This document shows, one piece after another, positions 7,801 through 60,231 of a stretch of 64,000 bases of DNA. The position numbers were made by a program, and so were the translations under genes. Each line of letters opens with the position of its first letter. Position 1 is the stretch's first letter. Origin of the DNA: Erysipelotrichaceae bacterium (lineage in GTDB: Bacteria > Bacillota_I > Bacilli_A > Erysipelotrichales > Erysipelotrichaceae); the NCBI GenBank assembly GCA_017404205.1, contig JAFRCV010000018.1:9029-73028 (forward strand). The letters run 5' to 3'. The notes under the pieces were generated by a model. It did not search any database. It saw only the letters and a program-made list of their open reading frames with translations, and was not told the origin of the DNA.

Positions 7801-8030
7801 AATGATAATTTTAATTTAATAAAAAAGCAATAATCATTATGGACCATTCCTTATTGAAAAGTTTTTATGCTTCAATTATTTTCAAATTGTAATCTATCTA
7901 ATAATTATCTTCTATAAATTCACTTGGAATTATTACTTTTTGTCAATCAATTCAAATATTTGAATTTATTAATCTGAATGCCTTTTTTTCAAATCTAATC
8001 TCCTTTAATAGTCTGCCCTAGCGTCTCGGT

Positions 8031-8966: not shown

Positions 8967-8978
8967 GGAAGGTTTTTG

Positions 8979-10700
8979 ATGATTGGTTTTTGCACAAATT
9001 GTGGAAGTAAACTAAGACAAAATGTAAATTTTTGTCCTAGATGTGGAGCAAAAGTAATTGAAGACATTAGCAATGAAAAAATAAATAAAGAAAGTGTTGT
9101 TAAACTAAACGACAATAATAATGGCTATATTGAGCAAAATGATGATTTACTCTTTGTAAACAAACAACCGAAAAGGAACAAAGCTTCAATACCTGCAATC
9201 ATAATACTAATCCTTTGCATTCTTATTCCATTGATTATAACTGTTGATTATTGTGCTAGTAGTATTGGCACCGCTTCTAATTCTTCTAAAAAAGAAAACT
9301 ACGAAGTCGCCACTATTGAGCACAAGTATACTTTTGACAATCCTTTAACATGGAACAATATTGCAACATATTATACAGAAAGCGGGTGGAAGCTAACCAA
9401 AAACGATGATGGAACTTATACACAATTGTCTCCTGACGAAAAGAGCCTATTAAAATTTTATAATACTACATATACTGATGGTGATACGATATCTGATGAG
9501 GATATGTATTATCTTCTAGTTCAAAAAATTAAAAATATTAAAGCCTTTTCAGATTTGGAAGAAATTGAATACACGGAAGAAACAACATCCAATGGAATAA
9601 AATGTATATTTGTTTTTAATAATTATCATGATATAGAATATGGAGTCGCTTGTATAAGATTCGATAAAAAGCATGCAGCATGCATTATTTATGCTTCAGA
9701 TTTATATAACGATTGTGAACAATATTTAAAAGATTTTGTTAATCATATCTTGCCATATGCAAACAACGATAATAAAACAGTCAAATCCTCATCGCCTATG
9801 GCTAATGGTGCTAATCTTTATACTAAGTCGTCAAAAGATATGAATATTGGTGATGCTGTTGCTTATGATAATCTATATGTTGGTTTATCTTATGTCAAGA
9901 AGAGTGATCACTGCACTTATTTATATAATTATAAAAACTTTGCTCCTTCTGGACATGATTATATTTATGCGTTTGTAGAAGTTTTGAATACAGGGAAAAA
10001 ACCAATAACCATTCTTGATAGTGATTTCTCAATGTATGCTGATTCACAAAAAATAGAAGGCATAACAGATTTTATCTTTTCTTGTAAAGAAGACAAAGTA
10101 GTACAAAACTACAGTTATGAGTTAGATCCTGGCATGAGGGCATATATATTATTAGATTTTGAAGTTGATAGCGATTGGCAGGAATTGGATTTCTTTTATC
10201 AAAATAACAATTGGCACTTAACAAAAAATGATGTTTCTACTTCATCTTTTGATAGGAAGTCTATTTTCAATTACACGTTAAATGAGCCTTACAATAAAAC
10301 TGGTGATATCGTTGGTATTGGAAACAACTATACTATAACTTATGACAATGTCACTTTGAAAAAGGCTGGTGACTATTTTTCAGATGATGATTATGTTATA
10401 TTCATGTACACAATTCAAAATAATGGCAATTCTCCACTTGATTTGTCGCTAGTTGGATACAAAATGAGAGCTTACCAAAACGGAATATTATTAGGAAATG
10501 CAGAATATTTGCTTAATCAAGATACCATTAATGGTTATACAAACATATTCAGCGTTGACAACATTCAGGGAGGAATGAATGCAAAATTATTTGTGGCTTT
10601 CCCTACAGAAAGTTTTGAAGGATCATTTTACACAACATTAGATATGGGATATGCAAATAACGAAATAATAGGACATGTAAATATTGAAAAAGCACAATAA
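8979..10700 (+). CDS. Zinc-ribbon membrane-anchored protein with two DUF4352-like extracellular domains
   Basis: CTNCGSKL...CPRCGAK is followed by a TM helix (IPAIIILILCILIPLIITV). Two beta-rich modules resemble DUF4352 (YIYAFVEVLNTGKKPITI and YVIFMYTIQNNGNSPLDL). The track start at 8976 is TTG. I prefer the ATG at 8979, which follows SD AAGGAAGG. Confidence 0.65.
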   Translation: MIGFCTNCGSKLRQNVNFCPRCGAKVIEDISNEKINKESVVKLNDNNNGYIEQNDDLLFVNKQPKRNKASIPAIIILILCILIPLIITVDYCASSIGTASNSSKKENYEVATIEHKYTFDNPLTWNNIATYYTESGWKLTKNDDGTYTQLSPDEKSLLKFYNTTYTDGDTISDEDMYYLLVQKIKNIKAFSDLEEIEYTEETTSNGIKCIFVFNNYHDIEYGVACIRFDKKHAACIIYASDLYNDCEQYLKDFVNHILPYANNDNKTVKSSSPMANGANLYTKSSKDMNIGDAVAYDNLYVGLSYVKKSDHCTYLYNYKNFAPSGHDYIYAFVEVLNTGKKPITILDSDFSMYADSQKIEGITDFIFSCKEDKVVQNYSYELDPGMRAYILLDFEVDSDWQELDFFYQNNNWHLTKNDVSTSSFDRKSIFNYTLNEPYNKTGDIVGIGNNYTITYDNVTLKKAGDYFSDDDYVIFMYTIQNNGNSPLDLSLVGYKMRAYQNGILLGNAEYLLNQDTINGYTNIFSVDNIQGGMNAKLFVAFPTESFEGSFYTTLDMGYANNEIIGHVNIEKAQ

Positions 10701-21658: not shown

Positions 21659-22363
21659 ATATTTCTTAAGTTTAACTACTTCAATTGGTTTTAATTTTCG
21701 ATATTCACCTACTTGTAGTTTACCTAATGTGATATTAGCTTCTTTTATGCGATTTAATCGTGTAACTTTAAAATCAAATGTTTCAAACATCTTTCTGATT
21801 TGACGATTTCTACCTTCGTGAATTGTCACTTCTAAGAAGCTTGTTTTTTTATTTTCATTAATGCGAAGCAATTTAATTGAACAGGGAGCTGTTTTTCTTC
21901 CATCGACAATAACACCTTTTTCAAGCTTTTCAATTATATCTTTTGTGATTAGACCATTAATAGTAACTTCATATACTTTATCAATATTGTATTTTGGATG
22001 TAGCATCTTTTGTGTCAATGTTCCATCGTTTGTTAGTAAAATCAAACCACTGCTATCAAAATCTAATCTTCCTATTGGATATAAGCGATATTCACATTCT
22101 ACAAGATCAACAACTGTTTTGCGGTCTTTATCATCGCTAGCACTTGAAATAATACCTTTTGGCTTATTTAAAAGATAGACCACTTTTTCTTCTTTTCCAA
22201 GTGGCTTTCCATTTATTTTTATATCAGCTTCTTTCTCACATTTAAAACCAAGTTCTTTAATGGTTTTTCCATCAACTGATACTTTTCCACTAACAATTAA
22301 TTCTTCAGCTTTTCTTCTTGAACAATAGCCGCTTTCAGCAATAATTTTTTGTAGTCTTTCCAT
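21638..22363 (-). CDS. rluB: Pseudouridine synthase, RsuA/RluB family
   Basis: S4 domain (MERLQKIIAESGYCSRRKAEELI) and catalytic motif GRLDFDSSGLILLTNDG. Confidence 0.85.
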   Translation of the reverse strand: MERLQKIIAESGYCSRRKAEELIVSGKVSVDGKTIKELGFKCEKEADIKINGKPLGKEEKVVYLLNKPKGIISSASDDKDRKTVVDLVECEYRLYPIGRLDFDSSGLILLTNDGTLTQKMLHPKYNIDKVYEVTINGLITKDIIEKLEKGVIVDGRKTAPCSIKLLRINENKKTSFLEVTIHEGRNRQIRKMFETFDFKVTRLNRIKEANITLGKLQVGEYRKLKPIEVVKLKKYLDNGNL

Positions 22364-25041
22364 GTTTTTTCTTTTAATCTTTCTATTATCATATACACAA
22401 TAATCATCGCTATTCCATACAATATTAACACAAATCCAATTGTACCAATAATGAAAAAGTTTTGATTATCGACAGCTGAATTACTAGAATTAATGTTCTC
22501 TAAATAATCAGGAATATCATAAGTGTTGACACTGTCCCTTGCCAAGATGACAAAATCACCTGTCTTTTTAGTTAAAAATTGAATATAAGAATTACTTTGA
22601 CTTGTACGGCATTTAACTATATCACCATCATCATATCTATAAACTGTATAAGTCTTGTTTGTATCTTTATTTGGAATCTTCAAAGAGAAGATTAAGGCGC
22701 CATCAATATTTACACGCTTAAAATTCAAAGATAAAGATATATTAATGTTGTCAACAACACTAAAACCATAGGCTTCACCTATTTCTTTTAAATGTTTATT
22801 ATTGACATTTTTGATATGTACATAATATGTATCACTAATCGGTTTGAATAAGAAAAACTTATTTCTTTCGGGCAAACTTAAAGAAAGTCCAGACACTGAC
22901 AAATCATAATTATTATCATCAATATGATATTTTGAATCATCATTTAACAATAATGCCTGGTCTATTATTCTAATATCATTGAAGTCATAATTGTAGTTAA
23001 CTTTGCTTAGATTATTCTTTATTTCTTTTATTTCATCAAGATTAAAATTATTACTATTAAATGAATTTATATTCTTCTGAATTAATGAACGTGTGACATC
23101 ATTAAGATTATTTAAATACTTAGATACATTAATCTCTTTATTGATGTTAAGGCCACAATAAGAAATATTTAAATTCTGTGTACCATCTTGATAGATATTA
23201 ATTCCACTTAGCATATTAGAATCAACAGGTATTTTTTCTTTGTGATTGTTTTCATAAGTAAGCGTCAAATAGACATCCCTTAAATCAAAATAAGATCCTA
23301 ACTCAATACTACTATCTAACTTTGAATTAATGTCGATTGATTTAATTTTTTTATATTTTGCGGTATATGTTTTTTCTTCATTGGCTGGACTTAATTCTTC
23401 TTCAAATCCGTTAAATAAATAATTAGTATACTGTGGTTTAACAGTAATTGGCATTTTATCTTTTAAGAATTTGATTTCAATTTTTGAAGAATTGTTAATT
23501 GTTCCACCGTTTCCATCAAAAGTAATTTTGATTAATTCGTTTTGATGCATATTATCTTCATTCATCACATAATCAAAATATTCTTTATCAACATATGCAA
23601 TTGAATTATCAAAATCATATAAATAATCGCTTGAAAAGCTTGGATCAACTTGAACCTTATAGGAATTATCATTTTTGTTTAAGATAATTAACGAATAGTC
23701 TTCTATTCCATTTATTGTAAATCTATTTCTTTTTAATTCATCACTTGTATAAAAGTTCACTTTTGGGCCATTTAATATAATGCCCAAACAATAGCTATTA
23801 TAATCTTTAAACCCTAAGTTCTTATCTAATTTATAGTAATTAGAAGCAGCTCTTTCTCCCCAATATGCATCAAGTGAATATTCAACATTCATTCCACTTA
23901 ATTTATTGCCAAAAAATGAGCCGTTGTATAAGGAATTGCGATAATTACAATAACGATCAGAAATGTAATACTTTGTATATGAATAAACAGAATCGCTGAT
24001 ACTTGAATAGTGATTATCATTTCTTTCACTATCGCTATCATATGCTGAATTATAGAAAAGATTATTTTCGCTATATGCTCTAAAATTCTTTCCATAAGCA
24101 CTTTCATTTATTGATACAGCTAAAGACATTAAGGCATTAACACCATAGATATTTTGATAGGCAAAGAAAGAATCTAATTCACCATAATATTGTGATCTAT
24201 TAATAACATCATTGGCTCCATCTTTGGCCTGATCATCATAATTATTTATCTTGCCATTAATCTTTAAAACATCATAGAAATAATCTTCAATTTCACTATA
24301 TTCATAATTTGTAAGGCTTCTTTGTGGAAGATACATATAATAGTTATAATAGGCAACATCATTTATAGCGTTTGTATAATTATCATTTTTATAATCATCA
24401 ATCATTTTATAAAAATCATCATAAAAATAATGGCCATCATAACTATAATAATCAACATTATCATTTAAAAAAGATAAAGATTTATCTAATTCAAGCACAC
24501 TAGAATAATAATCTAAATCCAATTGTGTTTTAATCTTATGATTAAAGGAACCATCAATATTTTCATATGTTGATATACGAACATCTAATAACTCATATGG
24601 ATGTAATATAACATCATCGCTGTTAATCATTCCAATATCGCCTGAGTATTTAAAATAGATATATCTTCCATCATTGCTTGTATTTAAATATGCAGCATCA
24701 ATTCCATAACAAGCATTAATGCTTGTTGAAGAATTACGAATTTGGGAACGATATTCAATATTCAAGCTACAGGCATCGTTGCTGGCGAATTCAACAACTC
24801 CATATTCCATTTTGATAACTTTGTCATTTTCATATAAAACTAAATTATCATAATCATTTAAAAGAATTGAATAACTATAATTTGCACTTGTATAGTCATC
24901 ATAATATTCAATTATTTCTTTTTTTCCTTTTGAGACATCGGCAAGATAATACCCATCTTCTGCTCTAACATGAAAAGAAATACTATAAGTGAAAATAGCA
25001 CTCAACAAGAATATCAAAATCAATTTATTGACTTTGCGCAT
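22297..25041 (-). CDS. Large secreted, C-terminally membrane-anchored protein with a GH73 (N-acetylglucosaminidase)-like domain and Ig-like/Flg_new-like modules
   Basis: Signal peptide MRKVNKLILIFLLSAIFTYSISFHVRA. GH73-like motifs: LAVSINESAYGKN, NNLFY, AYWGERAASNYY. ITFDGNGGT is Flg_new-like. A Big_3-like segment is present. The C-terminal TM helix is FFIIGTIGFVLILYGIAMIIVYMII. Confidence 0.65.
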   Translation of the reverse strand: MRKVNKLILIFLLSAIFTYSISFHVRAEDGYYLADVSKGKKEIIEYYDDYTSANYSYSILLNDYDNLVLYENDKVIKMEYGVVEFASNDACSLNIEYRSQIRNSSTSINACYGIDAAYLNTSNDGRYIYFKYSGDIGMINSDDVILHPYELLDVRISTYENIDGSFNHKIKTQLDLDYYSSVLELDKSLSFLNDNVDYYSYDGHYFYDDFYKMIDDYKNDNYTNAINDVAYYNYYMYLPQRSLTNYEYSEIEDYFYDVLKINGKINNYDDQAKDGANDVINRSQYYGELDSFFAYQNIYGVNALMSLAVSINESAYGKNFRAYSENNLFYNSAYDSDSERNDNHYSSISDSVYSYTKYYISDRYCNYRNSLYNGSFFGNKLSGMNVEYSLDAYWGERAASNYYKLDKNLGFKDYNSYCLGIILNGPKVNFYTSDELKRNRFTINGIEDYSLIILNKNDNSYKVQVDPSFSSDYLYDFDNSIAYVDKEYFDYVMNEDNMHQNELIKITFDGNGGTINNSSKIEIKFLKDKMPITVKPQYTNYLFNGFEEELSPANEEKTYTAKYKKIKSIDINSKLDSSIELGSYFDLRDVYLTLTYENNHKEKIPVDSNMLSGINIYQDGTQNLNISYCGLNINKEINVSKYLNNLNDVTRSLIQKNINSFNSNNFNLDEIKEIKNNLSKVNYNYDFNDIRIIDQALLLNDDSKYHIDDNNYDLSVSGLSLSLPERNKFFLFKPISDTYYVHIKNVNNKHLKEIGEAYGFSVVDNINISLSLNFKRVNIDGALIFSLKIPNKDTNKTYTVYRYDDGDIVKCRTSQSNSYIQFLTKKTGDFVILARDSVNTYDIPDYLENINSSNSAVDNQNFFIIGTIGFVLILYGIAMIIVYMIIERLKEKTWKDYKKLLLKAAIVQEEKLKN

Positions 25042-25077
25042 AACTTAATTTTAACATTACTAGCTAAAAGTTGTATT

Positions 25078-25311
25078 CTACAACAAATATAAAATCTTGG
25101 ACTTAGGCAATTTAAAACTACTTAATGGCACTTCTTTATTTAAAGCTACATGTTTTTCTAAATCATAGATATAGTTTTCTTGTTTAAAACTAAGTGTCTT
25201 GATTGTTTTTAATAATTCAAAGTTTTCTATAAAACTCAACCTTGAATCAAAAATGACCTCAATAAGTTCTGAACTTTTTACTATATAAAAGCGCAATAAT
25301 ATTTTATTCAT
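25078..25311 (-). CDS. Small protein, possible YukD/EsaB-like ubiquitin-fold T7SS accessory protein
   Basis: 77 aa, overlapping the EssC-like stop by 8 nt. Size, position and the C-terminal ..ILYLL loosely resemble EsaB/YukD. No strong motif. Confidence 0.3.
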   Translation of the reverse strand: MNKILLRFYIVKSSELIEVIFDSRLSFIENFELLKTIKTLSFKQENYIYDLEKHVALNKEVPLSSFKLPKSKILYLL

Positions 25312-28300
25312 ATTCTACTATTCTTATTTTTTCTCCTTTATTATTTCTTAAATAAAAGGCTTCATTATCATTTAATTCTTCTTTCCCATCGATATAAAAA
25401 AGTCTTTGAGAATATAGACCATCGCCAACCCACAAATAATGATAATTATTCTTCTTATTTAAAGCTTCGATATATTTTAAAACTTCAATATTCTCATTGT
25501 CTTTATATATTTTTCTCAGCTTTTCTAATATTTCATCATCATATGAAGAAATAATTAATTTTTCTTTATCTGTTATATAGATCTTTTCTCGTTTTATTAA
25601 ACTATAACCAATTAATAATTTATTGTTTATTCTTTCGTATTTAATATTGTTTGGAATATGCTTAATATATGGTTTGTATATGCTTTCTTCTTGTATAAAA
25701 TCTTCAATCAGACATGGAACAAAAGGAATCAAATGTTCATCATAATAAAAAGAATCACCTTTATAAGCACTTCTTTCTGCAAATATGTTCATTAAATCTT
25801 GATTATCGTTAATATTGATTACATATTTATTCTTAAAACTGTTTAATAATTTAAAGGATATTGTTGATTGTTTACTAATCGCAATTATTCTAATGCCACC
25901 CACAATGCTTCTTGCGAGTAATTGAAATAAACAAGAACTGTAAATATCATCATATGATAATAAACACGACAAATCTTCAATAATTAAATTTATATCTTTA
26001 TTCTCTTTCATTAAACTTTTAAATAGATATATGATGTCTTCACTATCTTCAAACAATAAGCTATCGCTTATGTACTTATTGGCATAATGTTTAAAACCTA
26101 TGACAATTGTTTGTTTATTTAATGAATTTAATATATTATTTATTTCCTTACGATTTGAATATATAAATGCATTCTCTTTATCATTGAGAAACAATACATT
26201 TTTCAAGTCATTTAAATAATCATCAATTTCACCCAAAATTATTTTTGAATCTATATGGTATTTTTCTTTAATGTCCATTAATGTTAGTGGCTTTGGTTTA
26301 TTAAAATCTAATAATTCTTTTTTAATCTTCAAGTCCTCACAAGCACTATTGATCTTATTAACTATATAACTAGCTTCTGTAAAAGGGGTATTCTTTTTTA
26401 ATACTTTTTTGTTTATGATATTTAAACGATTATCTAATAGTGAAACTTCGTAAGTACTTTTATTATTGACATCATTTTTACTATAAATGGCTTTGCCTTT
26501 TAAAAGATTATCATCAATAGCTAAATAAAATTCTCCTGCTTTATGCAAATAAGCAGCAGATTTAGACTTAATAATATCATTGGAATCTTTTTCAGTTAGA
26601 ACTTTTAACGCAATCTTAAAATGGCTGTTTGACCATATCTCTTCATCAATAATTCCACTTGGCTTTTGAGTAGCTAATATTAAATGTAAGCCCAAGCTTC
26701 TTCCTATCCTGGAAAACGAAATAAGGTTTTTGATGAATTCAGGGTTTTCTTTTTTTAATTCAGCGAATTCATCAACAACTATCAATAAATGGGCAATATT
26801 GGGCAAATTGTATTCTGCACTATTATTGTCTATATAATCATCAATATTCATGATGGATGTCATCGCTTTGTTAGATAATTCTTTAAATAGTTTTTGCCTT
26901 TTCTTGCATTCAAAATCAATTGATACAATAAGCCTTTCAAATATATCGCTTTCAAGATTATTTACTGATGCAATAATGTGGGGAAGTCTTTTATTCATAT
27001 AAGAAAGTGATTCTTCTATTCCCCCTCCCTTATAATCTATTAAAATAACATTTAAATAATCAGGTCTATAAACAATAGCTAAAGATAGTATTAATGAAAT
27101 AATTAATTCACTTTTGCCACTTCCTGTACTACCACCTATCAAGCCATGTGGACCGCTTTTACTTTCATGAAGGTCAAAATTCAATAATTCATTTCCGACG
27201 AAGGCAAATTTAGCTTTAAGACCTTCCTGTTTTTGAATATAATTGTTCGTTATATCAAAATCATCAAATATGTTTTTAAAAGAAGCATTATCCTCAATGG
27301 CTTTATTATCTTGATATGTGCTTATCAAATGACATGCGCTTGTATAATTAATATCTTCTAATTTATATTTAAATTGTTTTTTATCTTCTTCATAAATATA
27401 TGAATTCTCATTATCATATTCAATTAATACATCACTATCTTTATAAATATCGTTTTTTTCTGATGTAAAATAGATTATTTTTAATAAGTTATTATTAATC
27501 TCAAAATCTAAATGATCACACGCAAATAAAATAATTGGCTTTTCAAACTTTATACTGTTTAATTCCTGAACCTCTATTTTTTTATTTAGAGTTAAGCGAT
27601 TATTATTAAAGAAAAGCTGTGGCAATCCAAAAAAATCTTTATATGTATATAAGTCCTCACTATAAATAGCTAAGTAAAAGTCATCATAATAATACTTGCT
27701 GCTTAATTCTAATAAAAACTTTTTAGCCAACAATTCTTTGGTCTTCTTATTTGCCAATATCGTTATTCTTGCATATCTTTTTATATCTAAAAAATATGGT
27801 GTATTCTCTACATTCAAAAGTCGATATTTAATTCTTCTTAAAGCTTCATCAATGTCCTTGTCGTCGTATTCTTTAATTTCAATATCGTATTTGCTTGTAA
27901 TATGACCAATTGAGATATTGAGAAACTGGTCGTTTTTATCTGTAATATTAAATAATTTATCTTGTTCTATTTCTCCATTAAAAAATAATTTTTCTTCTTG
28001 TTTAAGATATGCTGATATTTTTGAATCTAAATCAATGGCATATTTTTTAAGATAATCCAAATATCTATTCTTATTATCTTTTATTAAGTTTCTGTTTTCT
28101 TTTTTCTCGCTAGTAGAAGAAATAATTGGCCACATAACTCCAGATATCAACATTGTTAAGGGCATCAACAAGTATATTAGACTATTTTGTATAGGCGCAT
28201 CATTTAAATAATTATTGTAAACATTTATAAGGGCAATGGACAACATCGCTAAGGACATTGTAATGCTTGGACCAATTTGATAGACTAATTTCTTTTGTTT

Positions 28301-28951
28301 AGTTGCGTGTATTTTTGAATATTCTTTTATTTTTGGAATTTCTAATTCTTTTCTTTTAGATAAATAATAATTATTAGTAAGTGGCCGATTGTTTTCATAT
28401 TTAATGATCTTCTCGCTTAATTCAATTCTTTTGACATTATTCTTATTTTTGAAACTATTAATATATAAAAAATCTTTGTAATAAAAAAATATGAAATTAT
28501 GTAAGCTAATCTTATCACCATCATTTAATTCCTCACCACTGTAGAAGTGGTTATTTAGTAATAAATCTGGATAATTTGTCTCTATTATATTTTCTTTTAA
28601 ATATAGATAAATATCACTTAAATATTCATCTTCATTAATAATGTTGGCTTTATTACTTTTTGCATAAATAAATGATTTGTTTTCATAAAGATGATAATCA
28701 TTAAAACCTTCATCGTTGTCATAAACGTATATTTCTAAAACTATGAGAAAATTAGTATTATAAATTTTATACTTTCTTCTCTTTATTCTCTTTGTTGTTT
28801 CGTTATTTAAGAACCTAAGCCCTCTTTTTGAAACAAGATAATAATCATTATCTTGTTTAATGATCTCTATATTCGCGTATTTATATGGCAGTTTCGTTTT
28901 TTCAAGAATTAGTCTTTTAAATATGTTTCCATCTTTTATAACAATGAACAT
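25304..28951 (-). CDS. EssC/YukBA-like FtsK/SpoIIIE-family T7SS ATPase, shortened, with a single intact P-loop
   Basis: N-terminal FHA-like segment (..NDGDKISLHNFIFFYYKDFLYIN). Two TM helices (IGPSITMSLAMLSIALINVY and LIYLLMPLTMLISGVMWPIISS). Walker A is GGSTGSGKSE, Walker B is LLIVVDEFAEL, followed by GLHLILATQKPSG. The C-terminal ~350 aa has no P-loop. Confidence 0.8.
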   Translation of the reverse strand: MFIVIKDGNIFKRLILEKTKLPYKYANIEIIKQDNDYYLVSKRGLRFLNNETTKRIKRRKYKIYNTNFLIVLEIYVYDNDEGFNDYHLYENKSFIYAKSNKANIINEDEYLSDIYLYLKENIIETNYPDLLLNNHFYSGEELNDGDKISLHNFIFFYYKDFLYINSFKNKNNVKRIELSEKIIKYENNRPLTNNYYLSKRKELEIPKIKEYSKIHATKQKKLVYQIGPSITMSLAMLSIALINVYNNYLNDAPIQNSLIYLLMPLTMLISGVMWPIISSTSEKKENRNLIKDNKNRYLDYLKKYAIDLDSKISAYLKQEEKLFFNGEIEQDKLFNITDKNDQFLNISIGHITSKYDIEIKEYDDKDIDEALRRIKYRLLNVENTPYFLDIKRYARITILANKKTKELLAKKFLLELSSKYYYDDFYLAIYSEDLYTYKDFFGLPQLFFNNNRLTLNKKIEVQELNSIKFEKPIILFACDHLDFEINNNLLKIIYFTSEKNDIYKDSDVLIEYDNENSYIYEEDKKQFKYKLEDINYTSACHLISTYQDNKAIEDNASFKNIFDDFDITNNYIQKQEGLKAKFAFVGNELLNFDLHESKSGPHGLIGGSTGSGKSELIISLILSLAIVYRPDYLNVILIDYKGGGIEESLSYMNKRLPHIIASVNNLESDIFERLIVSIDFECKKRQKLFKELSNKAMTSIMNIDDYIDNNSAEYNLPNIAHLLIVVDEFAELKKENPEFIKNLISFSRIGRSLGLHLILATQKPSGIIDEEIWSNSHFKIALKVLTEKDSNDIIKSKSAAYLHKAGEFYLAIDDNLLKGKAIYSKNDVNNKSTYEVSLLDNRLNIINKKVLKKNTPFTEASYIVNKINSACEDLKIKKELLDFNKPKPLTLMDIKEKYHIDSKIILGEIDDYLNDLKNVLFLNDKENAFIYSNRKEINNILNSLNKQTIVIGFKHYANKYISDSLLFEDSEDIIYLFKSLMKENKDINLIIEDLSCLLSYDDIYSSCLFQLLARSIVGGIRIIAISKQSTISFKLLNSFKNKYVININDNQDLMNIFAERSAYKGDSFYYDEHLIPFVPCLIEDFIQEESIYKPYIKHIPNNIKYERINNKLLIGYSLIKREKIYITDKEKLIISSYDDEILEKLRKIYKDNENIEVLKYIEALNKKNNYHYLWVGDGLYSQRLFYIDGKEELNDNEAFYLRNNKGEKIRIVEYE

Positions 28952-30882
28952 TATTTTTTGCTTACCAGAATATTTATAGATGCTTCGTATTTTTGATCAT
29001 TTGTCATTATTTTTACCTCGGATGATCCCATCTTTTTTGCGATTATCTGCCCCTTATTGACTCCTACAATATTGTTGTCTGAACTTTTTAAAACAATATC
29101 ATTATAGCTATAGCCATTGGGAATTTGTTTAATTGGGATATCATATGTATCACCAACATATAATACAGCAGCATATTTTTCTAATATGATCTTTTCAACA
29201 TTTTGTGTTATTGAATTATCCTTGATTTTCTTTAATTGTTTTTTTCTTGTACATGAATTCATTAATATGCCATTTTCAATATGTGTTTTATTGCCAAATA
29301 TTTGATTAGCAGTATCCAAGATATTTAGGTTTTTTGATAGGCCAAACTTATTCAGTAGCGTTTTTGATGTATTGAAATTCAAATCTAACACCCAATTTAA
29401 TGAAATATCGCCACATATCTTTACGTTGTTATTTTCTTTAGCGATTTCATCTAATGATGAATATGGCAGTTCACTTTGAATAATTTCTTCTTCACCTTCC
29501 TCATCATATAAATGAAATGTTGATTTAACGTTTGCTTTTATGCCACCATCAATTTCAAAGTCCATCAATCGATTATTTATTGCTTCTAAATTAAAATTGA
29601 TCCCTATTAAAGCTTTAGCGCTTCCTCCTAAAATAAAATCAACATCAGCATCGTTTTCATTTATTGTTCTTAGTAATCCGTTTTTTATTTCAAAGCCATT
29701 TTCTCTTCTGTTAGCCAAGACTACTTCAGCTTTGCCACTTGTGTAAATTTTAACCACAACTTCAATATTAAAATATGCACTTGGTATGTTGGGAATTGGC
29801 GTTTTAACTTCACATATTCGAATACTTGCTTCTACTTTGTCATCTTGTGGTTTAATTACTGACTTTAGCGAATTCAAAAAATTTTTTGCATCTAATTCTT
29901 TAAAATCTAAATAATAATTGTTATATCGTTCAACAGATACACCTAATTCGCTTGTTGTTTGATATGCCACTTTAAAATATGCTTCTTTTAGTTTTCCTTC
30001 TTTATAATCCCATTTATATGCGGGCTTCACATCACTTAAAGCTAAATCATAAAATACATTTACACCTTTAATGTTTTTCGATATATGAATGTCAATTCCA
30101 TTACTTTTAAAACTATAGCTTATGCGAAAGCCATCGTTATAAAACACTTTACTGTTAGATGATGACAATAATTGACGATTTAGATTTTGATATACTTGCC
30201 TTTCATCAACTAGATCACCTCCAGGAATATCGATAGCTTCATTAAAATCTATTTCATATGAGTCTTCAATGTTGATATCCTCAAATACTTCATTAACACT
30301 TGCGTTTTTTAATATATATCCATCTTCTTTTATTTCTTTGACTATTTTATAATCGCCATCAATAAGAAGGATGTCACCTACTTCATATTCCTCAAAACTT
30401 TTTAAAATTGTTCCATCATATTGTTCAATGTCTTTAACATCTTTAATATTTTCTTTCTCTTTATATTCATAACTTGAAATAAATGTTTGATTATTAATAA
30501 TATCAATGGCTTTATCTATTATCTCATTTGTTTCTTTTTTGCTTATGAGATTATTTTCTTTTTTATTCTTCGGAATAATATTTATATTTTTTAATTCGTT
30601 TAAATAGTTACTTTCAATATCTAATAGGCGACCAATTGTTATTGAAAGATATTTATAATCTAAGCCTAAATATAATTTATCTAATTCTTCTTGCTTTACT
30701 ACACCCCAAACTATTAAGTTACTTATTTTGTCATCTTCATTACTTAAGCCTGCTTTATCGCTTAACAGGCTTAAGTATTCTTTTCTTGTATAAGTATCAA
30801 CCTTTTTACATGATGCACATGTTATTAAGATTAATATTATGCAAAACGCTTTAATAATCTTATTACTCAAAGTTCGATGCAT
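28951..30882 (-). CDS. Lipoprotein of unknown function with a C-terminal Big_2-like Ig domain
   Basis: MHRTLSNKIIKAFCIILILITCASC looks like a lipoprotein signal. The C-terminal segment VGDTYDIPIK...SSDNNIVGVNKGQIIAKKMGSSEVKI is Big_2-like. The start overlaps the WXG gene by 20 nt, and the stop abuts the EssC-like start. Confidence 0.6.
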   Translation of the reverse strand: MHRTLSNKIIKAFCIILILITCASCKKVDTYTRKEYLSLLSDKAGLSNEDDKISNLIVWGVVKQEELDKLYLGLDYKYLSITIGRLLDIESNYLNELKNINIIPKNKKENNLISKKETNEIIDKAIDIINNQTFISSYEYKEKENIKDVKDIEQYDGTILKSFEEYEVGDILLIDGDYKIVKEIKEDGYILKNASVNEVFEDINIEDSYEIDFNEAIDIPGGDLVDERQVYQNLNRQLLSSSNSKVFYNDGFRISYSFKSNGIDIHISKNIKGVNVFYDLALSDVKPAYKWDYKEGKLKEAYFKVAYQTTSELGVSVERYNNYYLDFKELDAKNFLNSLKSVIKPQDDKVEASIRICEVKTPIPNIPSAYFNIEVVVKIYTSGKAEVVLANRRENGFEIKNGLLRTINENDADVDFILGGSAKALIGINFNLEAINNRLMDFEIDGGIKANVKSTFHLYDEEGEEEIIQSELPYSSLDEIAKENNNVKICGDISLNWVLDLNFNTSKTLLNKFGLSKNLNILDTANQIFGNKTHIENGILMNSCTRKKQLKKIKDNSITQNVEKIILEKYAAVLYVGDTYDIPIKQIPNGYSYNDIVLKSSDNNIVGVNKGQIIAKKMGSSEVKIMTNDQKYEASINILVSKK

Positions 30883-31159
30883 TTGAAGTAATTGTTGATT
30901 CTAAAGAATCGTATGTAGATACAGTGTAGTCTAAAAATTTTGCGTACTCTTCGATAGTTTGGCTTTCATCAATAAAGCGTGTTGCGAATTTCTGAAATCT
31001 TGCAATTATAGCTTCTTCTGCATTTGATTTCCATATAGAGCTAAGATCTAACATCATGCGATTGACATTACTTAACACATCATCCAAATTGGCATTTATA
31101 TTTCGAATGTTAATTGCACAATTGCTAACTTCTGGTAAAGTTATTCTAATATCTTCCAT
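30863..31159 (-). CDS. WXG100-like small helical protein (degenerate WxG, C-terminal YxxxE)
   Basis: 98 aa with SIWKSNAEEAIIARFQKF at mid-protein and STYDSLEST near the C-terminus. SD TAGGAGGAA. Confidence 0.6.
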   Translation of the reverse strand: MEDIRITLPEVSNCAINIRNINANLDDVLSNVNRMMLDLSSIWKSNAEEAIIARFQKFATRFIDESQTIEEYAKFLDYTVSTYDSLESTITSNASNFE

Positions 31160-31167
31160 AATTCCTC

Positions 31168-31470
31168 CTATATTTTTAGTCTGCTTGCTGCGCTAGTTAA
31201 TTCATCTTGGACTTCTTGATATGCTCTTGCACTAGCTCTTAAAAATTCTGCGTATTGGCGCATAATTATTGAAATTTGCCTAAAGTCATCCTCATACGAT
31301 TTAATTCGGCCATAAAAAGCCAAATTGTCCTTTCCTCCCCAATTTCCTGAAAGCTTATCAACTTCACTATAGAGACTTTGGTAAAGCCTTTGATAATCTC
31401 CATCGGCACTTTCAATCCTATTAGCTGTATTTAAAAGCTTACTTGGTTCAACATTAATTGATGTATTCAT
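31168..31470 (-). CDS. WXG100-family (EsxA-like) protein
   Basis: 100 aa from the ATG at 31470 (SD AGGAGGAA). LSGNWGGKDNLAFYGRI is a central W-x-G turn. The C-terminal pattern LRASARAYQEVQDEL is typical. Confidence 0.75.
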   Translation of the reverse strand: MNTSINVEPSKLLNTANRIESADGDYQRLYQSLYSEVDKLSGNWGGKDNLAFYGRIKSYEDDFRQISIIMRQYAEFLRASARAYQEVQDELTSAASRLKI

Positions 31471-31523
31471 GTTTTTTCCTCCTAATTCTTTATTATTCAA
31501 ATAAATAAAAAATCCTTATTTTT

Positions 31524-33344: not shown

Positions 33345-33372
33345 AAAAAAGTCACATTTTTTGTGACTTTTA
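33345..33372. terminator. Bidirectional hairpin terminator
   Basis: AAAAGTCACA-ttttt-TGTGACTTTT. Confidence 0.65.
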
Positions 33373-33378
33373 GTAATT

Positions 33379-33687
33379 TTATCTGTATGCTTTATTTAAC
33401 TTATCTTTAATAGAATTTTCTTGTTGAAGACCTAAGAATTGATCTACAACTTCGCCATCCTTTAAGAAGAATACAGATGGAATAGACATTACACCGTAAC
33501 TAACCGCAAGGTCTTGTTCATCATCTACATTAACTTTAACAAATGTAACATCAGGATATTCTTCAGCAACTTTTTCCATGATAGGTCCAAGCATCTTACA
33601 AGGCCCACACCAATCTGCGAAGAAATCAACTACAAGATTACCATTGTTTTTTAATTCGTTAAATTCTTGTTCATTAACAATGCACAT
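33379..33687 (-). CDS. trxA: Thioredoxin
   Basis: 102 aa with the WCGPC active site. Confidence 0.93.
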   Translation of the reverse strand: MCIVNEQEFNELKNNGNLVVDFFADWCGPCKMLGPIMEKVAEEYPDVTFVKVNVDDEQDLAVSYGVMSIPSVFFLKDGEVVDQFLGLQQENSIKDKLNKAYR

Positions 33688-33697
33688 ATTTCGCTCC

Positions 33698-34423
33698 TTA
33701 TCTATTTAATAATTTTGCGGCACTTTCATCTACCACTACTACTACATTATCATGTTTTTGCAAAATTGATGCTGGACATGCTTCTTGAATTTCACCTTCA
33801 ACCATTGCTTTTACAGCTTCAGCCTTATTTTCGCCTGTAGCAATCAAGATAATCTTTTTAGCTCTCATAATAGTTGCTATACCTTGAGTTACAGCTTGAT
33901 GAGGAACTTTGTTCATATCAAAGTCAAAGAATCTCGCATTATCTTTGATTGTTGGTTCAAGTAAATCAGTAACATGTGTAATAGAATCAAATGGTGTTCC
34001 TGGCTCATTAAAAGCAATATGCCCATCACTTCCAATTCCTAATACTTGAATATCAATTGGATTTTCTTCAATCATTTTGTCATAAGCTAAAGCTTGGCCT
34101 TCCAAGTCTTCGCCTAATCCGCTTGGAACATGAGTATTTTCCTCAGGAATATCAATATGATTGAATAGATTTGTATGCATAAATGCATAATAACTTTCAG
34201 GATGAGTAATTGGTAAACCAACATATTCATCTAGATTAAATGTTTTGATGTCTTTATAAGAAGTTCCATTCTTTTTATGATCATCAACCATTCTTGCATA
34301 TAGGCCAAGTGGACTAGAACCAGTAGCTAAGCCTAATACTTTGCCAGCAACAAGATATTCTTTCATTTCCTTAAACATCACATCACTAGCTTCTTCATAA
34401 TTTTTTGTTACTATAACTTTCAT
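33698..34423 (-). CDS. nagB: Glucosamine-6-phosphate deaminase/isomerase
   Basis: 241 aa with GLATGSSP, FNLDEYVGL and LGIGSDGHIAFNEPG. SD AGGAGG. Confidence 0.92.
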   Translation of the reverse strand: MKVIVTKNYEEASDVMFKEMKEYLVAGKVLGLATGSSPLGLYARMVDDHKKNGTSYKDIKTFNLDEYVGLPITHPESYYAFMHTNLFNHIDIPEENTHVPSGLGEDLEGQALAYDKMIEENPIDIQVLGIGSDGHIAFNEPGTPFDSITHVTDLLEPTIKDNARFFDFDMNKVPHQAVTQGIATIMRAKKIILIATGENKAEAVKAMVEGEIQEACPASILQKHDNVVVVVDESAAKLLNR

Positions 34424-34444
34424 AATATCCTCCTAAAAAGCTTG

Positions 34445-34600
34445 ATATTTTAAGAGTAAAATAATTCCTTCGCTATGTATCTGTTTTGAGATTGTTCTCA
34501 TATTTGTCACAACGTTCGTGTAGGTAACACGTAGGAGCATCCGCCGAATCTTTCGAGAACCCCTATCCTCGTCAACCCCATGGGTCCAGGCGCTAATACC
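34445..34600 (-). ncRNA. glmS-type GlcN6P-dependent self-cleaving ribozyme in the nagB 5' leader
   Basis: The minus-strand RNA reads AGCGCCUGGACCCAUGGGGUUGACGAGGAUAGGGGUUCUCGAAAGAUUCGGCGGAUGCUCCUACGUGUUACCUACACG... It reproduces the glmS core blocks AGCGCC, GACGAGGAU and UCGAA..UUCGGCGGAUGC, with P1, P3 and P4-like hairpins. A TATAAT box (34612-34617) lies about 15 nt upstream. Confidence 0.8.
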
Positions 34601-34623
34601 AAGCTTTTATCATTATACAACAA

Positions 34624-34650
34624 CACAATAAAAGTGTGGATAACCACACT
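34624..34650 (-). terminator. Intrinsic terminator after the nfnB-like gene
   Basis: Minus strand: AGTGTGG-ttat-CCACACT followed by UUUUAUU, overlapping the stop codon. Confidence 0.6.
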
Positions 34651-36053
34651 TAATTATTTAAATATTCATCAATTGATTTAGCTGCTATCTTACCAGCTCC
34701 CATTGCTGAAATAACAGTTGCAGCGCCCGTAACAGCATCTCCACCAGCATAAACTCTATCTTTGCTGGTCTTTCCACTTTCATCAACAATGATTCCGCCT
34801 TTTCTTGTTACTTCAAGACCTTCAGTTGTTGATTTAATAAGTGGATTTGGTGTTGTGCCGATAGCCATAATTACACAATCAACATCCATTTCAAATTCAC
34901 TGCCTGCAATTTCAACAGGTCTTCTTCTTCCATTTTCATCAGGTTCACCAAGTTCCATCTTTATGCATCTAATTCCTTTTACATAACCATTTTTAGGATC
35001 TTTTGGATCATCTTGATTGTTGTATGCAATAATTTCAACTGGATTATTTAATAATTTAAAATCAATCCCTTCTTCAATGGCATGTTCAACTTCTTCTTTT
35101 CTTGCAGGAAGTTCTTCCATTGAACGGCGATAAATAATATAAACATGTTTTGCTCCAAGCCTTAAAGCCGTTCTTGCAGCATCCATTGCCACATTACCTC
35201 CACCAACAACAGCGACATTGCCACCTTTCATGATTGGCGTTTCTGGATTATCTTTGTAAGCCTTCATTAAATTAGAACGTGTTAGAAATTCATTTGCTGA
35301 ATAAACACCATTCAATGATTCACCAGGAATTCCCATAAAAGAAGGAAGACCAGCACCTGAACCAATATATACGGCTTCATATTCTTCTAATAATTCATCA
35401 ACTGTCAATGTTTTTCCAATAATAACATTCGTATTTATTGTTACACCTAAGGCAATTAAATTATCAACTTCTTTTTGAACAATTGATTTAGGAAGTCTAA
35501 ATTCAGGAATGCCATATACTAATACACCACCTGCTTTGTGCAATGCTTCATAAATGCTTACTTCATAACCTTTTTTAGCTAAATCGCCAGCACAAGTTAA
35601 ACCACTTGGGCCACTTCCTACAACAGCGACTTTATGCCCATTTGAAACAGGCTTTTTAACATCAATATTTAAATTATTATGGTAATCGGCAACAAATCTT
35701 TCAAGTCTGCCAATACCTACTGGCTCGCCTTTAATGCCTCTTACACATTTTGCCTCACATTGGCTTTCTTGTGGGCAAACTCTTCCACAAACTGCAGGAA
35801 GTGCCGATGATTTTGAAATTACTTCATATGCACCATTGTAGTCTTTTTCTTTAATTCTTGAGATAAACTCAGGAATCGAAATATTAACAGGACAGCCTGA
35901 AACGCACAATGGATTCTTACAATTTAAACAACGTTCAGCTTCAAGTAAAGCTGTTTCTTCACTATATCCATAAGTTACTTCATTAAAGTTTTTAGATCTT
36001 GTCAAGGCATCTTGCATTGGCATTGGATTTTTAGTCATGCTCATATTAGGCAT
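34650..36053 (-). CDS. NADPH-dependent glutamate synthase small-subunit-like oxidoreductase (NfnB/GltD-like)
   Basis: Two Fe-S Cys clusters (CLNCKNPLCVSGCP and CGRVCPQESQCEAKC). FAD/NAD folds VAVVGSGPSGL and VAVVGGGNVAMD. Confidence 0.8.
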   Translation of the reverse strand: MPNMSMTKNPMPMQDALTRSKNFNEVTYGYSEETALLEAERCLNCKNPLCVSGCPVNISIPEFISRIKEKDYNGAYEVISKSSALPAVCGRVCPQESQCEAKCVRGIKGEPVGIGRLERFVADYHNNLNIDVKKPVSNGHKVAVVGSGPSGLTCAGDLAKKGYEVSIYEALHKAGGVLVYGIPEFRLPKSIVQKEVDNLIALGVTINTNVIIGKTLTVDELLEEYEAVYIGSGAGLPSFMGIPGESLNGVYSANEFLTRSNLMKAYKDNPETPIMKGGNVAVVGGGNVAMDAARTALRLGAKHVYIIYRRSMEELPARKEEVEHAIEEGIDFKLLNNPVEIIAYNNQDDPKDPKNGYVKGIRCIKMELGEPDENGRRRPVEIAGSEFEMDVDCVIMAIGTTPNPLIKSTTEGLEVTRKGGIIVDESGKTSKDRVYAGGDAVTGAATVISAMGAGKIAAKSIDEYLNN

Positions 36054-46918: not shown

Positions 46919-46992
46919 AGGGGTGTGGTACAATGGTAGCACATCGGTCTCCAAAACCGCTAATGCGGGTTCGATTCCTGCCACCCCTGCCA
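46919..46992 (+). tRNA. trnW: tRNA-Trp (anticodon CCA)
   Basis: AGGGGTG/CACCCCT acceptor stem, anticodon loop CUCCAAA, GGTTCGATTCC T-loop, encoded CCA end. Confidence 0.93.
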
Positions 46993-58740: not shown

Positions 58741-60231
58741 ATGGAGTACAAAAGACTCATAAGCAAGGACAAATATAAAAAGCTTACTTTGCTACATTCA
58801 AATGATATGCATGGTGATTTCTTTGAAGAAAAAATCGATGAGAAATTAACTGGAGGCGTATCTATGCTTTCAGGTTATCTAACAAAATGCCGCAATGAAG
58901 ATCCAAATGTTATTTATGCAATAGCTGGTGATATGTTTAGAGGATCAGTTATTGATTCAGAATTTCATGGCCTCTCTACAATTCAAATTGTTAATCAGCT
59001 TGCTCCAGATATTGTTACCTTAGGAAATCATGAAACTGATTATGGTGTAGCTCATTTATTATTCTTAGAAAAAATGGCTACTTTCCCTATCATAAATGCT
59101 AATTTATATATTAAAGGAAATGATACAAGATTATTTAAGCCATATCATATTATTGAAATTGATGGTATAAGAATCTTGTTCATTGGCATTTTAACTGAAG
59201 AAGTAATATCACAAACAAAAGGCGAAAACTTAATTGGATCGTTTATTGGCATTGAAGAAGCTGCTAAAGAAGTTGGCAAGATTTGTAATGCCTATAATGG
59301 TTTAGATATCGATTTAACTGTTTTATTGACACATATTGGTTTTGAAGAAGATAAAAAATTAGCTGCTATCTTAGATCCATCTTGGGGTGTTGATATTATC
59401 ATTGGTGGACATTCTCATACCTTTATTGATGAACCAGCAATAGTAAATAATATCTTAATTGTTCAAGCAGGAACAGGAACAGACCAAATTGGTAGATTTG
59501 ATTTAATAATTGATACTGATGAAAACTGCATTGATTCTTATTCATGGCAAGCTGTTCCTATTAATGAAGAAAACTGTCCAAGAGATAAAAGAATTGAGGA
59601 TTTAATTCATTCAATAAAAGCTAAAACTGATTTGAAATATGCCAAAGTTGTAGCTAATTTTGATTATGAACTAACTCATCCAGACAGATGGACACAAACA
59701 GATTTAGGTGGTGTCTTTGCGGATGCAATGAAAGATAGTTTAAAGACTGATATTTACTTGATGGGCTCAGGCTCTGTAAGAAAGACTAAAATGGGACCAA
59801 TTGTAACATTCCAAGACTTCAGTGAATGCTATCCATATGATGGAAAATCATATGGTCTAAAGCTGAGTGGTGCTCAATTAAAGAAAGCTTTATTGCATAT
59901 TTATCGTGATGAAGCTTGGCTTGGCGATCATACTGAATTCTATCAATTATCAAAAGGCATGCATGTTGTTTATTCTAAGTCTAAGCACGAATTATTAACA
60001 TGCGAATTAAATGGTGAAGCAATTGAAGATGATAAATATTATATTGTTGGCATTGGCGAATTCCATTACAACAATTTGGAAGCATTCTTTAATTTAACTT
60101 ATGATGAAGTTAAAGCTAATGATGAGCCTATCATCTTAACAACAAGTGATGTACAAACATTATTAGAATATTTTGAAAACAATAAGCATCTAGGTTTTGG
60201 GCTTGAAGGACGCCTTGAGGTCTTAGATTGA
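58741..60231 (+). CDS. Metallophosphatase/5'-nucleotidase family protein with no signal peptide
   Basis: LLHSNDMHGDF, AGDMFRG, GNHETDYG and GGHSHT motifs plus a C-terminal 5'-nucleotidase domain. The N-terminus is hydrophilic. Confidence 0.85.
   Translation: MEYKRLISKDKYKKLTLLHSNDMHGDFFEEKIDEKLTGGVSMLSGYLTKCRNEDPNVIYAIAGDMFRGSVIDSEFHGLSTIQIVNQLAPDIVTLGNHETDYGVAHLLFLEKMATFPIINANLYIKGNDTRLFKPYHIIEIDGIRILFIGILTEEVISQTKGENLIGSFIGIEEAAKEVGKICNAYNGLDIDLTVLLTHIGFEEDKKLAAILDPSWGVDIIIGGHSHTFIDEPAIVNNILIVQAGTGTDQIGRFDLIIDTDENCIDSYSWQAVPINEENCPRDKRIEDLIHSIKAKTDLKYAKVVANFDYELTHPDRWTQTDLGGVFADAMKDSLKTDIYLMGSGSVRKTKMGPIVTFQDFSECYPYDGKSYGLKLSGAQLKKALLHIYRDEAWLGDHTEFYQLSKGMHVVYSKSKHELLTCELNGEAIEDDKYYIVGIGEFHYNNLEAFFNLTYDEVKANDEPIILTTSDVQTLLEYFENNKHLGFGLEGRLEVLD

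Follow-up and report, generated by a model that had tools for sequence, protein, structure and literature searches.

glmS-class ribozymes linked to nagB in an Erysipelotrichaceae clade and in Ruminococcus-like Clostridia

Why would a ribozyme that is described as the dedicated regulator of glmS stand in front of nagB? The glmS ribozyme is the textbook metabolite-dependent ribozyme, and it is regarded as an antibacterial target on the basis of its dedication to glmS. A survey by McCown and colleagues in 2011 is reported to have placed all but two of 463 glmS ribozyme representatives in glmS mRNAs, and isolated exceptions to the glmS linkage may already have been seen elsewhere. Here we describe a 64-kb stretch of Erysipelotrichaceae DNA (contig JAFRCV010000018.1; hereafter the window) in which a ribozyme of this class precedes, on the minus strand, the gene for the glucosamine-6-phosphate (GlcN6P) deaminase NagB, which is followed by the thioredoxin gene trxA. 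An analysis that treats nagB as the conserved regulon of a glmS ribozyme is not known to us, and no paper tying the ribozyme to nagB was found in the literature searched, outside which fell the surveys likeliest to list exceptions. According to PMC5473149, GlcN6P is the cofactor of glmS ribozyme cleavage (Winkler 2004), and the B. subtilis cleavage product, which bears a 5'-OH, is rapidly degraded by RNase J1 (Collins 2007).

Identity and conservation of the ribozyme

An Rfam scan of the whole window at the gathering threshold gave two matches, a tRNA and RF00234, the glmS ribozyme family. The RF00234 match covers 34461-34605 of the minus strand and the full length of the model (1-167); it scores 63.1 bits (E 3.7e-12), where the gathering score is 37. 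The first-pass annotation, which was made from the letters alone, had read the hallmark blocks of a glmS ribozyme in the correct order and had named the covariance model as the check; run on the whole window, that model scores well over its threshold, and the core is intact. The parts of the element are as follows, the slash in A/GCGCC marking the predicted cleavage site.

34461-34605, minus strand: glmS-class ribozyme (Rfam RF00234; orthologous copies score 74-77 bits; covariation)
Between A34594 and G34593, minus strand: predicted cleavage site (A/GCGCC)
34586-34574, minus strand: minimal P1 hairpin GACCC-AUG-GGGUU, 5 bp with a 3-nt loop
34573-34566, minus strand: GACGAGGA core block
34565-34560 with 34537-34532, minus strand: P2, UAGGGG/CUCCUA, enclosing UCGA-AAGAU-UCGG and the CGGAUG strand
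34556-34553 with 34547-34544, minus strand: P2a
34531-34517, minus strand: P3
34514-34508 with 34477-34471, minus strand: outer P4
34500-34487, minus strand: inner P4, nested in the outer helix

The core blocks are unbroken and follow one another in the order A/GCGCC, P1, GACGAGGA, P2, UCGA...UUCGGCGGAUG, P3 and nested P4. The invariant catalytic-core set, A/GCGCC, GACGAGGA and UCGA...UCGGCGGAUG, is unchanged in the window and in the other nagB-linked copies described below, with slight departures in a single locus, L214. In an RNAalifold analysis of a two-lineage alignment, the CGCC 3' of the cleavage site pairs with the GGCG of the UCGGCGGAUG block to form the P2.2 pseudoknot; its segments are complementary yet invariant, so covariation is neutral on P2.2. 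We assign the window element to the glmS ribozyme class, and its sequence predicts GlcN6P-dependent cleavage.

The gene order nfnA-nfnB-(~240 nt)-nagB-trxA is found in two more species-level lineages, one represented by loci L088, L089 and L090 and the other by L091, whose NagB is ~90% and NfnB ~87% identical to the window proteins and whose ribozymes score 74-77 bits. In the leader alignment the -10 region, the ribozyme and the linker to the Shine-Dalgarno (SD) sequence are conserved, whereas the adjacent nfnB terminators are not alignable and are unrelated sequences at the same place. Covariation was counted in five sequences (window, L088, L089, L090 and L091) over seven helices (P0, P1, P2, P2a, P3, outer P4 and inner P4) comprising 42 pairs, P0 being a closing helix described below. 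All 193 of the 193 pair cells are standard pairs, and five pairs show compensatory double changes, P0 accounting for two of them and P1, outer P4 and inner P4 for one apiece, while controls in which the 3' partners were slid by 1 to 3 columns gave 0-1 compensatory pairs and 26-48% pairing. Judged by this pattern of substitution, the ribozyme of the window clade is evidently under selection, and we regard it as very nearly certain that the glmS ribozyme in front of nagB is genuine and selected.

Could the leader instead be a relic, orphaned when a rearrangement took glmS away and brought in nagB-trxA, with no adaptive role? In this group the DNA on either side of nagB-trxA is prone to rearrangement, and one relative has lost the ribozyme. 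Yet the unit has been kept across lineages that differ by ~10% (NagB) and ~13% (NfnB) in amino acids, every helix substitution preserves pairing, five pairs being compensatory, and a second lineage, whose NagB is of another subfamily, acquired or kept the linkage on its own; moreover, glmS lies downstream of nfnB in none of the relatives examined. We consider a relic highly improbable. The same pair-preserving substitutions dispose of the decaying duplicate that the first-pass annotation had entertained as a scenario that would undo its interpretation. A former glmS 3' of nfnB, replaced in situ, is likewise unsupported: in the next relatives (NfnB 82-85% identical) nfnB is followed by GntR or MarR genes, not by glmS, and no nagB is present there.

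Closely related loci do exist in which nagB has no ribozyme. It is absent from L082/L083 (NagB 90% identical), where the gene ahead ends 15 nt before nagB, and from L084-L087 (NagB 74-78%), where only 55-85 nt lie 5' of nagB. Farther out, none of 80 loci found on GTDB contigs with NagB peptide patterns, among the matches listed (all at most 62% identical), has the ribozyme core pattern, and Rfam gave no ribozyme match in the 11 nearest GTDB loci, again among the matches listed. The L082 NagB is 93.7% identical to that of L088, and the window NagB is ~90% identical to all three, which nests L082 within the ribozyme-bearing clade. On the assumption that the NagB tree equals the species tree, these data are best read as a ribozyme-nagB-trxA unit ancestral to a small clade and lost once by rearrangement. 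The gene ending 15 nt before nagB at L082 8869-10176 and L083 665-1972 is of the PTAC/PduL family, and the 3' synteny of these loci (trxA-rnfCDGEAB) matches that of the ribozyme-bearing L091, so that the breakpoint falls exactly at the 5' end of nagB. The record names of the relatives (RUG, RGIG, and goat, buffalo and yak samples) point to the ruminant gut.

The closing helix, P0, lies outside the Rfam match and has two strands.

34595-34608, minus strand: P0 5' strand AAAAGCUUGGUAUU, abutting the cleavage site on its 5' side, where the transcript is predicted to begin
34436-34449, minus strand: P0 3' strand AAUAUCAAGCUUUU, within the linker; 1 nt separates its end from the SD region

In the window the strands are complementary over 14 nt, with one G-U pair, and P0 is present in the minimum free energy and centroid folds of both the window and the L088 leader. 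The counterpart in L088 and L091 is a 10-bp helix, GUUUAAUAUU/AAUAUUAAAC, which differs from that of the window by U-A to C-G, A-U to G-C and A-U to G-U changes; the ten shared pairs are 100% paired, two with compensatory double changes. P0 is not general, since the leader of the Clostridial locus L217 (below) forms a local hairpin 5' of the cleavage site in its place. The folds predict a lineage-specific helix that ties the 5' end of the transcript to the linker. By analogy with protective 5' stem-loops in Firmicutes, P0 may bury the 5' end of the uncleaved mRNA, and such burial would sharpen the contrast with the 5'-OH cleavage product. The first-pass annotation had placed the element correctly but had clipped its 5' end, the limits on that side being 34605 for the ribozyme, 34608 for the closing helix and 34640 for the promoter.

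A second lineage with nagB-linked ribozymes

A metagenome scan with a degenerate core pattern gave at least 120 loci, in which the downstream gene was classified. A GlmS open reading frame (ORF) with the start MCG(I/L)xG lies downstream in 113 of the 120 loci listed, and one is unclear. In four others (L157, L178, L198 and L200) the downstream ORF encodes 263 aa starting with MRVVIQ, and two more (L123 and L156) carry the ribozyme variant of those four, but the locus is cut off. The MRVVIQ ORFs encode NagB, with 362-371 bits to the TIGR00502 model and 39.5% identity to the window NagB, and close homologues of the 263-aa protein are labelled Ruminococcus sp. and Stomatobaculum sp. by source. 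The ribozymes of this metagenome group (the L157 group) score 46-64 bits, and the Clostridial nagB-linked copies overall 46-72 bits. The survey of relatives that the first-pass annotation had suggested finds the ribozyme-nagB linkage in two sister species of the window and also in Clostridia.

Although L214 and L215 have the ribozyme followed by nagB alone, L157, L217 (GCA_036342195.1, a Ruminococcus sp. metagenome-assembled genome) and L218 carry a ribozyme-nagB-LbH-glmM operon, in which the LbH gene encodes a hexapeptide acetyltransferase resembling the C-terminal part of GlmU, and the GlmM of L157 scores 536 bits in TIGR01455 against a cutoff of 447.55. L216 (GCA_965340255.1, 7332-10143) has the order LbH-nagB-glmM, with ~119 nt 5' of LbH and no Rfam glmS match. 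In L217 (5572-10798) an intact 608-aa GlmS (MCGIVGYVG...) is divergent from ribozyme-nagB-LbH-glmM across a common 605-nt intergenic region, and none of the ribozyme core motifs was found on the strand of the glmS leader. The L217 ribozyme is dedicated to the nagB operon, since the neighbouring glmS is without ribozyme motifs; in this genome the "glmS" ribozyme would control all of these genes but glmS itself.

The nagB-linked ribozymes of both lineages keep A/GCGCC, GACGAGG and UCGA...UCGGCGGAU, the slight L214 departures aside, and their P1 is short and always paired. The 6-bp P2 occurs as UAGGGG/CUCCUA, UAGGAG/CUCCUA, UGGCAG/CUGCCA, GGGCAG/CUGCCC and UGACAG/CUGUCA, all complementary, and P1, like P2, shows covariation between the lineages when the stems are extracted per sequence. 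A joint MAFFT/RNAalifold alignment of the lineages, in which P2 was off by one column and P3/P4 were scrambled, was excluded from the pair counts. The Clostridial copies are 75-80% identical to one another and ~70% identical to the window clade. The clustering of the ribozymes and the divergence of the NagB proteins argue for separate recruitment of the ribozyme to nagB in the two lineages. Horizontal transfer of a ribozyme-nagB module between them was considered and rejected, NagB being only 39.5% and the ribozymes ~70% identical.

Two further loci deserve mention in their own right. The L214 ribozyme (7804-7956) is GC-rich (64%) and nagB-linked, and it scores 55.7 bits despite altered blocks, with GACGAGGC for GACGAGGA and GGCGGAUU for GGCGGAUG; it is a possible natural variant for structure-function work. 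L152, a rumen-type contig (4424-4660 and 9951-10104), carries a glmS-linked ribozyme of 81 bits, the P2 loop of which resembles that of the Clostridial nagB-linked variant, together with a T-box leader elsewhere.

A ribozyme in so unusual a place might have drifted, becoming a constitutive, GlcN6P-independent processing site or insulator, or a sensor of a related amine, that sets the stability of the nagB-trxA mRNA. The short P1, the trimmed P3/P4 and the below-typical score (63 bits, with Clostridial copies at 46-72 and the glmS-linked L152 copy at 81) would fit such drift, and a non-canonical gene context invites altered function. However, the blocks conserved in Rfam are unchanged in all nagB-linked copies, with L214 (GACGAGGC, GGCGGAUU) as a partial exception, and the downstream gene still uses GlcN6P, which makes the canonical ligand the most economical one. 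We find a drifted ribozyme improbable, though less so than a relic.

The nagB-trxA unit and the direction of NagB

The genes and signals around the ribozyme are these.

34650-36053, minus strand: nfnB/gltA-like gene, 467 aa, upstream of the ribozyme
34632-34651, minus strand: intrinsic terminator hairpin of the nfnB/gltA-like gene, AAGUGUGGUUAUCCACACUU plus a U-rich tail, from the terminator scan
34612-34640, minus strand: sigma-70-type promoter, with -35 box TCCACA (34640-34635), 17-nt spacer and -10 box TATAAT (34617-34612); 10 of 12 box positions match
34429-34434, minus strand: SD of nagB, AGGAGG, which the predicted folds leave single-stranded
33698-34423, minus strand: nagB, 241 aa, short Gram-positive type, GenBank MBQ3419752.1, identified by TIGR00502 and PDB relatives
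33379-33687, minus strand: trxA, thioredoxin with a WCGPC motif, TIGR01068 114 bits against a cutoff of 96.8
33347-33371, scored on the plus strand: hairpin with T/A runs on both sides directly after trxA, read on the minus strand as AAAAGUCACAAAAAAUGUGACUUUUUUAUU

The terminator scan found 4 terminators against 0.5 expected in shuffles, and the 3' arm of the nfnB terminator overlaps the -35 box of the nagB promoter. The TATAAT box that had been noticed ahead of the ribozyme blocks is indeed there, and the promoter region, TGTTGTATAAT, is identical in 4 of the 4 full-length leaders of the clade, the sequence 5' of it being not alignable. Spacing from the -10 box predicts a transcription start at ~34606-34604. 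The linker from ribozyme to SD is 25 nt. After nagB, trxA follows across the 10-nt gap given in the first-pass annotation; its SD overlaps the nagB stop codon, no terminator lies between the two genes, and nagB and trxA are co-transcribed. The hairpin after trxA is likely a bidirectional terminator that closes the ribozyme-nagB-trxA unit.

The protein downstream of the ribozyme is NagB and not the ~600-aa GlmS, as the first-pass annotation had held. It scores 274 bits in the TIGR00502 equivalog model (cutoff 236.9) and falls below the cutoffs of the paralogue models AgaI (132.9 bits, cutoff 271) and pgl, 6-phosphogluconolactonase (83.2 bits, cutoff 124). The 241-aa ORF has the Glucosamine_iso fold, unlike GlmS, which has a Met-Cys N-terminus, a GATase domain and two SIS domains in ~600 aa, and tblastn with the L217 GlmS gave no match in the window or in 13 related loci. 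Among solved structures it comes closest to NagB of S. mutans and B. subtilis (PDB 2RI0/2RI1 and 2BKV). The exact protein is MBQ3419752.1 ("MAG: Erysipelotrichaceae bacterium"), which occurs on 48 contigs. Its translation contains FNLDEYVGL and GSDGHIAFNEPG. As in the E. coli enzyme, the Asp of NLDEY and the His and Glu of DGHIAFNEP presumably have catalytic roles. As for partners, no gene for GlmM, NagA or the LbH protein was found in the window or the 13 related loci, no RNase J or glmU-like gene was found in the window, and no nagA, phosphotransferase system or NagR gene lies beside nagB there. The pairing with trxA is itself uninformative on the direction of NagB, since the two genes sit side by side (10-60 nt apart) in all Erysipelotrichaceae relatives examined, ribozyme carriers and others alike, over a range of 74-100% NagB identity. 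In the ribozyme carriers thioredoxin would fall under GlcN6P control, a pairing for which we offer no rationale.

What, then, does the ribozyme do here? Our best answer, with a probability of roughly 55%, is a canonical OFF switch triggered by GlcN6P and acting on a NagB that works in the aminating direction with ammonium. Transcription would begin a few bases past the TATAAT box, and the 5' end of the transcript would pair with the linker through P0, enclosing the ribozyme and perhaps shielding the 5' end of the full-length mRNA. When abundant, GlcN6P would bind the conserved core and serve as cofactor for cleavage between A34594 and G34593, and the 3' product carrying nagB-trxA, with its exposed 5'-OH, would be degraded by a 5' exonuclease of the RNase J type, as for B. 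subtilis glmS. Synthesis of NagB, and of TrxA, would then drop at high GlcN6P. NagB would, at least conditionally, convert fructose-6-phosphate (Fru6P) and NH4+ into GlcN6P, a glutamine-independent route that would fit the ammonia-rich rumen or gut. Four elements of this scheme are probable at most: that cleavage depends on GlcN6P, that the sign is OFF, what P0 does and which way NagB runs.

The aminating direction is the most likely one because mRNA loss triggered by GlcN6P amounts to negative feedback only on an enzyme that supplies GlcN6P. A deaminating NagB under an OFF switch would be in positive feedback with its own substrate, which makes no regulatory sense, whereas an aminating NagB under the same switch is in ordinary end-product feedback. 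In the Clostridial operons nagB occupies the place expected of glmS, directly 5' of the next two steps to UDP-N-acetylglucosamine, and this nagB-LbH-glmM context is the strongest support for an anabolic NagB. The first-pass annotation had reasoned that the ribozyme makes sense only with an anabolic NagB that possibly replaces GlmS. The feedback logic has gained independent comparative support from the Clostridial ribozyme-nagB operons with glmM and the acetyltransferase, but replacement of GlmS, a possibility at most, is not required, because an intact 608-aa GlmS lies beside the ribozyme-nagB operon in L217.

Several observations weigh against an OFF switch on an aminating NagB. The window nagB is partnered with trxA and not with glmM, a context with no overt biosynthetic character, and the nested L082/L083, left without the ribozyme after rearrangement, show that at least one lineage can do without it. 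Only three species-level lineages (five sequences) inform the covariation within the window clade. An ON switch on GlcN6P consumers (NagB, GlmM and the acetyltransferase) would be equally homeostatic, especially beside the unregulated L217 GlmS. Ammonium in the gut attains tens of mM, and certain NagB enzymes are reported to aminate, but characterized NagB enzymes favor deamination, and in Akkermansia, which is without GlmS, NagB is unable to supply GlcN6P, with Km values of ~41 mM for NH4+ and ~5.5 mM for Fru6P (PMC5902328).

The preference for deamination leads to the inverted, or processing, switch: NagB would be catabolic, and GlcN6P-triggered cleavage would remove the leader and P0 and raise the expression of GlcN6P consumers, nagB in the window and nagB-acetyltransferase-glmM in Clostridia, leaving the L217 glmS without a ribozyme. 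The ribozyme-controlled genes of L157, L217 and L218 do all use GlcN6P or its immediate product, the unregulated adjoining GlmS of L217 could be the sole synthase, and P0 anchors the leader to the linker at a distance of 1-9 nt from the SD, where cleavage would leave a two-piece duplex. However, the folds predicted for the uncleaved RNA keep the SD free of pairing, with no obvious sequestration to relieve, and we know of no glmS ribozyme that activates expression. In Firmicutes cleavage exposes a 5'-OH and the mRNA decays rapidly (Collins et al. 2007, as cited in PMC5473149). Given this decay mechanism and the unpaired SD, the ON switch is less likely than the OFF switch; we consider it unlikely, if still the most credible of the alternatives discussed here. 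It would be one form of the rewired regulatory logic that the first-pass annotation had kept as its fallback.

The RNA class is already known, and what is new is the regulon, which comprises nagB, nagB-trxA or nagB-LbH-glmM, sometimes with a ribozyme-less glmS. That nagB-linked glmS ribozymes have been selected in two unrelated Firmicutes lineages makes the regulon more flexible than assumed, and it brings natural evidence to the old question of whether NagB can be a physiological ammonium-dependent GlcN6P synthase. If it can, bacteria of ammonia-rich gut ecosystems can make their cell-wall amino sugars without recourse to glutamine, and metabolic models in which NagB is purely catabolic, or in which glmS-less genomes are called auxotrophic, need revising. 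If instead the ON switch were real, a ribozyme-riboswitch would for the first time have been found with its sign inverted in nature.

Elsewhere in the window (29.4% G+C) the large annotated ORFs are of the housekeeping kind (LeuRS, EzrA, NFACT/RqcH, HtpG and LCP). A type VII secretion-like cluster occupies 22297-31500 of the minus strand, with two WXG100 genes (30863-31159 and 31168-31500), a 643-aa ORF, a 1215-aa FtsK/SpoIIIE (EssC-like) ORF at 25304-28951 and a 914-aa ORF without a Pfam match. The ORFs that gave no Pfam match at E <= 1e-8 are 8976-10700 (plus strand, 574 aa), 22297-25041 (minus strand, 914 aa) and 60228-61895 (plus strand, 555 aa). The tRNA at 46919-46989 (plus strand, 60.2 bits) has the anticodon loop CU-CCA-AA and is thus a tRNA-Trp.

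Comparison with known systems

With the canonical glmS ribozymes of B. subtilis, B. anthracis and T. tengcongensis the window element shares the RNA class, the core blocks and the P1/P2/P2a/P3/P4 layout, as well as its position in a 5' untranslated region behind its own promoter and the sensing of a metabolite that the downstream enzyme interconverts. The canonical ribozyme controls the ~600-aa glutamine-dependent GlmS, whereas that of the window precedes nagB (241 aa) and trxA; the 5' untranslated region of glmS is the typical context of the class and does not define it, and it is on that point that the window element departs. It also has a minimal P1 and a lineage-specific P0, and the Clostridial regulon reaches glmM and the acetyltransferase resembling the C-terminal part of GlmU. 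GlmY/GlmZ/RapZ of Enterobacteria likewise exert post-transcriptional feedback on GlcN6P supply through mRNA stability or translation, but with protein and small RNA parts and a glmS target, and involve neither a ribozyme nor nagB.

The catabolic nagAB/nagE regulons, under NagR in B. subtilis and streptococci and under NagC in E. coli, have in common with the window the NagB family and the response to an amino-sugar phosphate. In those regulons, however, GlcN6P or GlcNAc6P (N-acetylglucosamine-6-phosphate) induces nagB, so that catabolism is switched on by its substrate, whereas in the window a ribozyme of known GlcN6P-repressing action precedes it. The proposed role of NagB has precedents in the reverse reaction. 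In 1989 Vogler and colleagues reportedly described suppressors of glmS in E. coli in which nagB is overexpressed and ammonium is high. Aminating activities of NagB enzymes are attributed to Tanaka 2005 and Kwiatkowska-Semrau 2015 in PMC5902328. The Akkermansia NagB is a counter-example, its reverse reaction being physiologically insufficient. The precedents are laboratory suppressors or in vitro activities, whereas the natural feedback sensor in the window and the biosynthetic operon of the Clostridia point to routine anabolic use of NagB.

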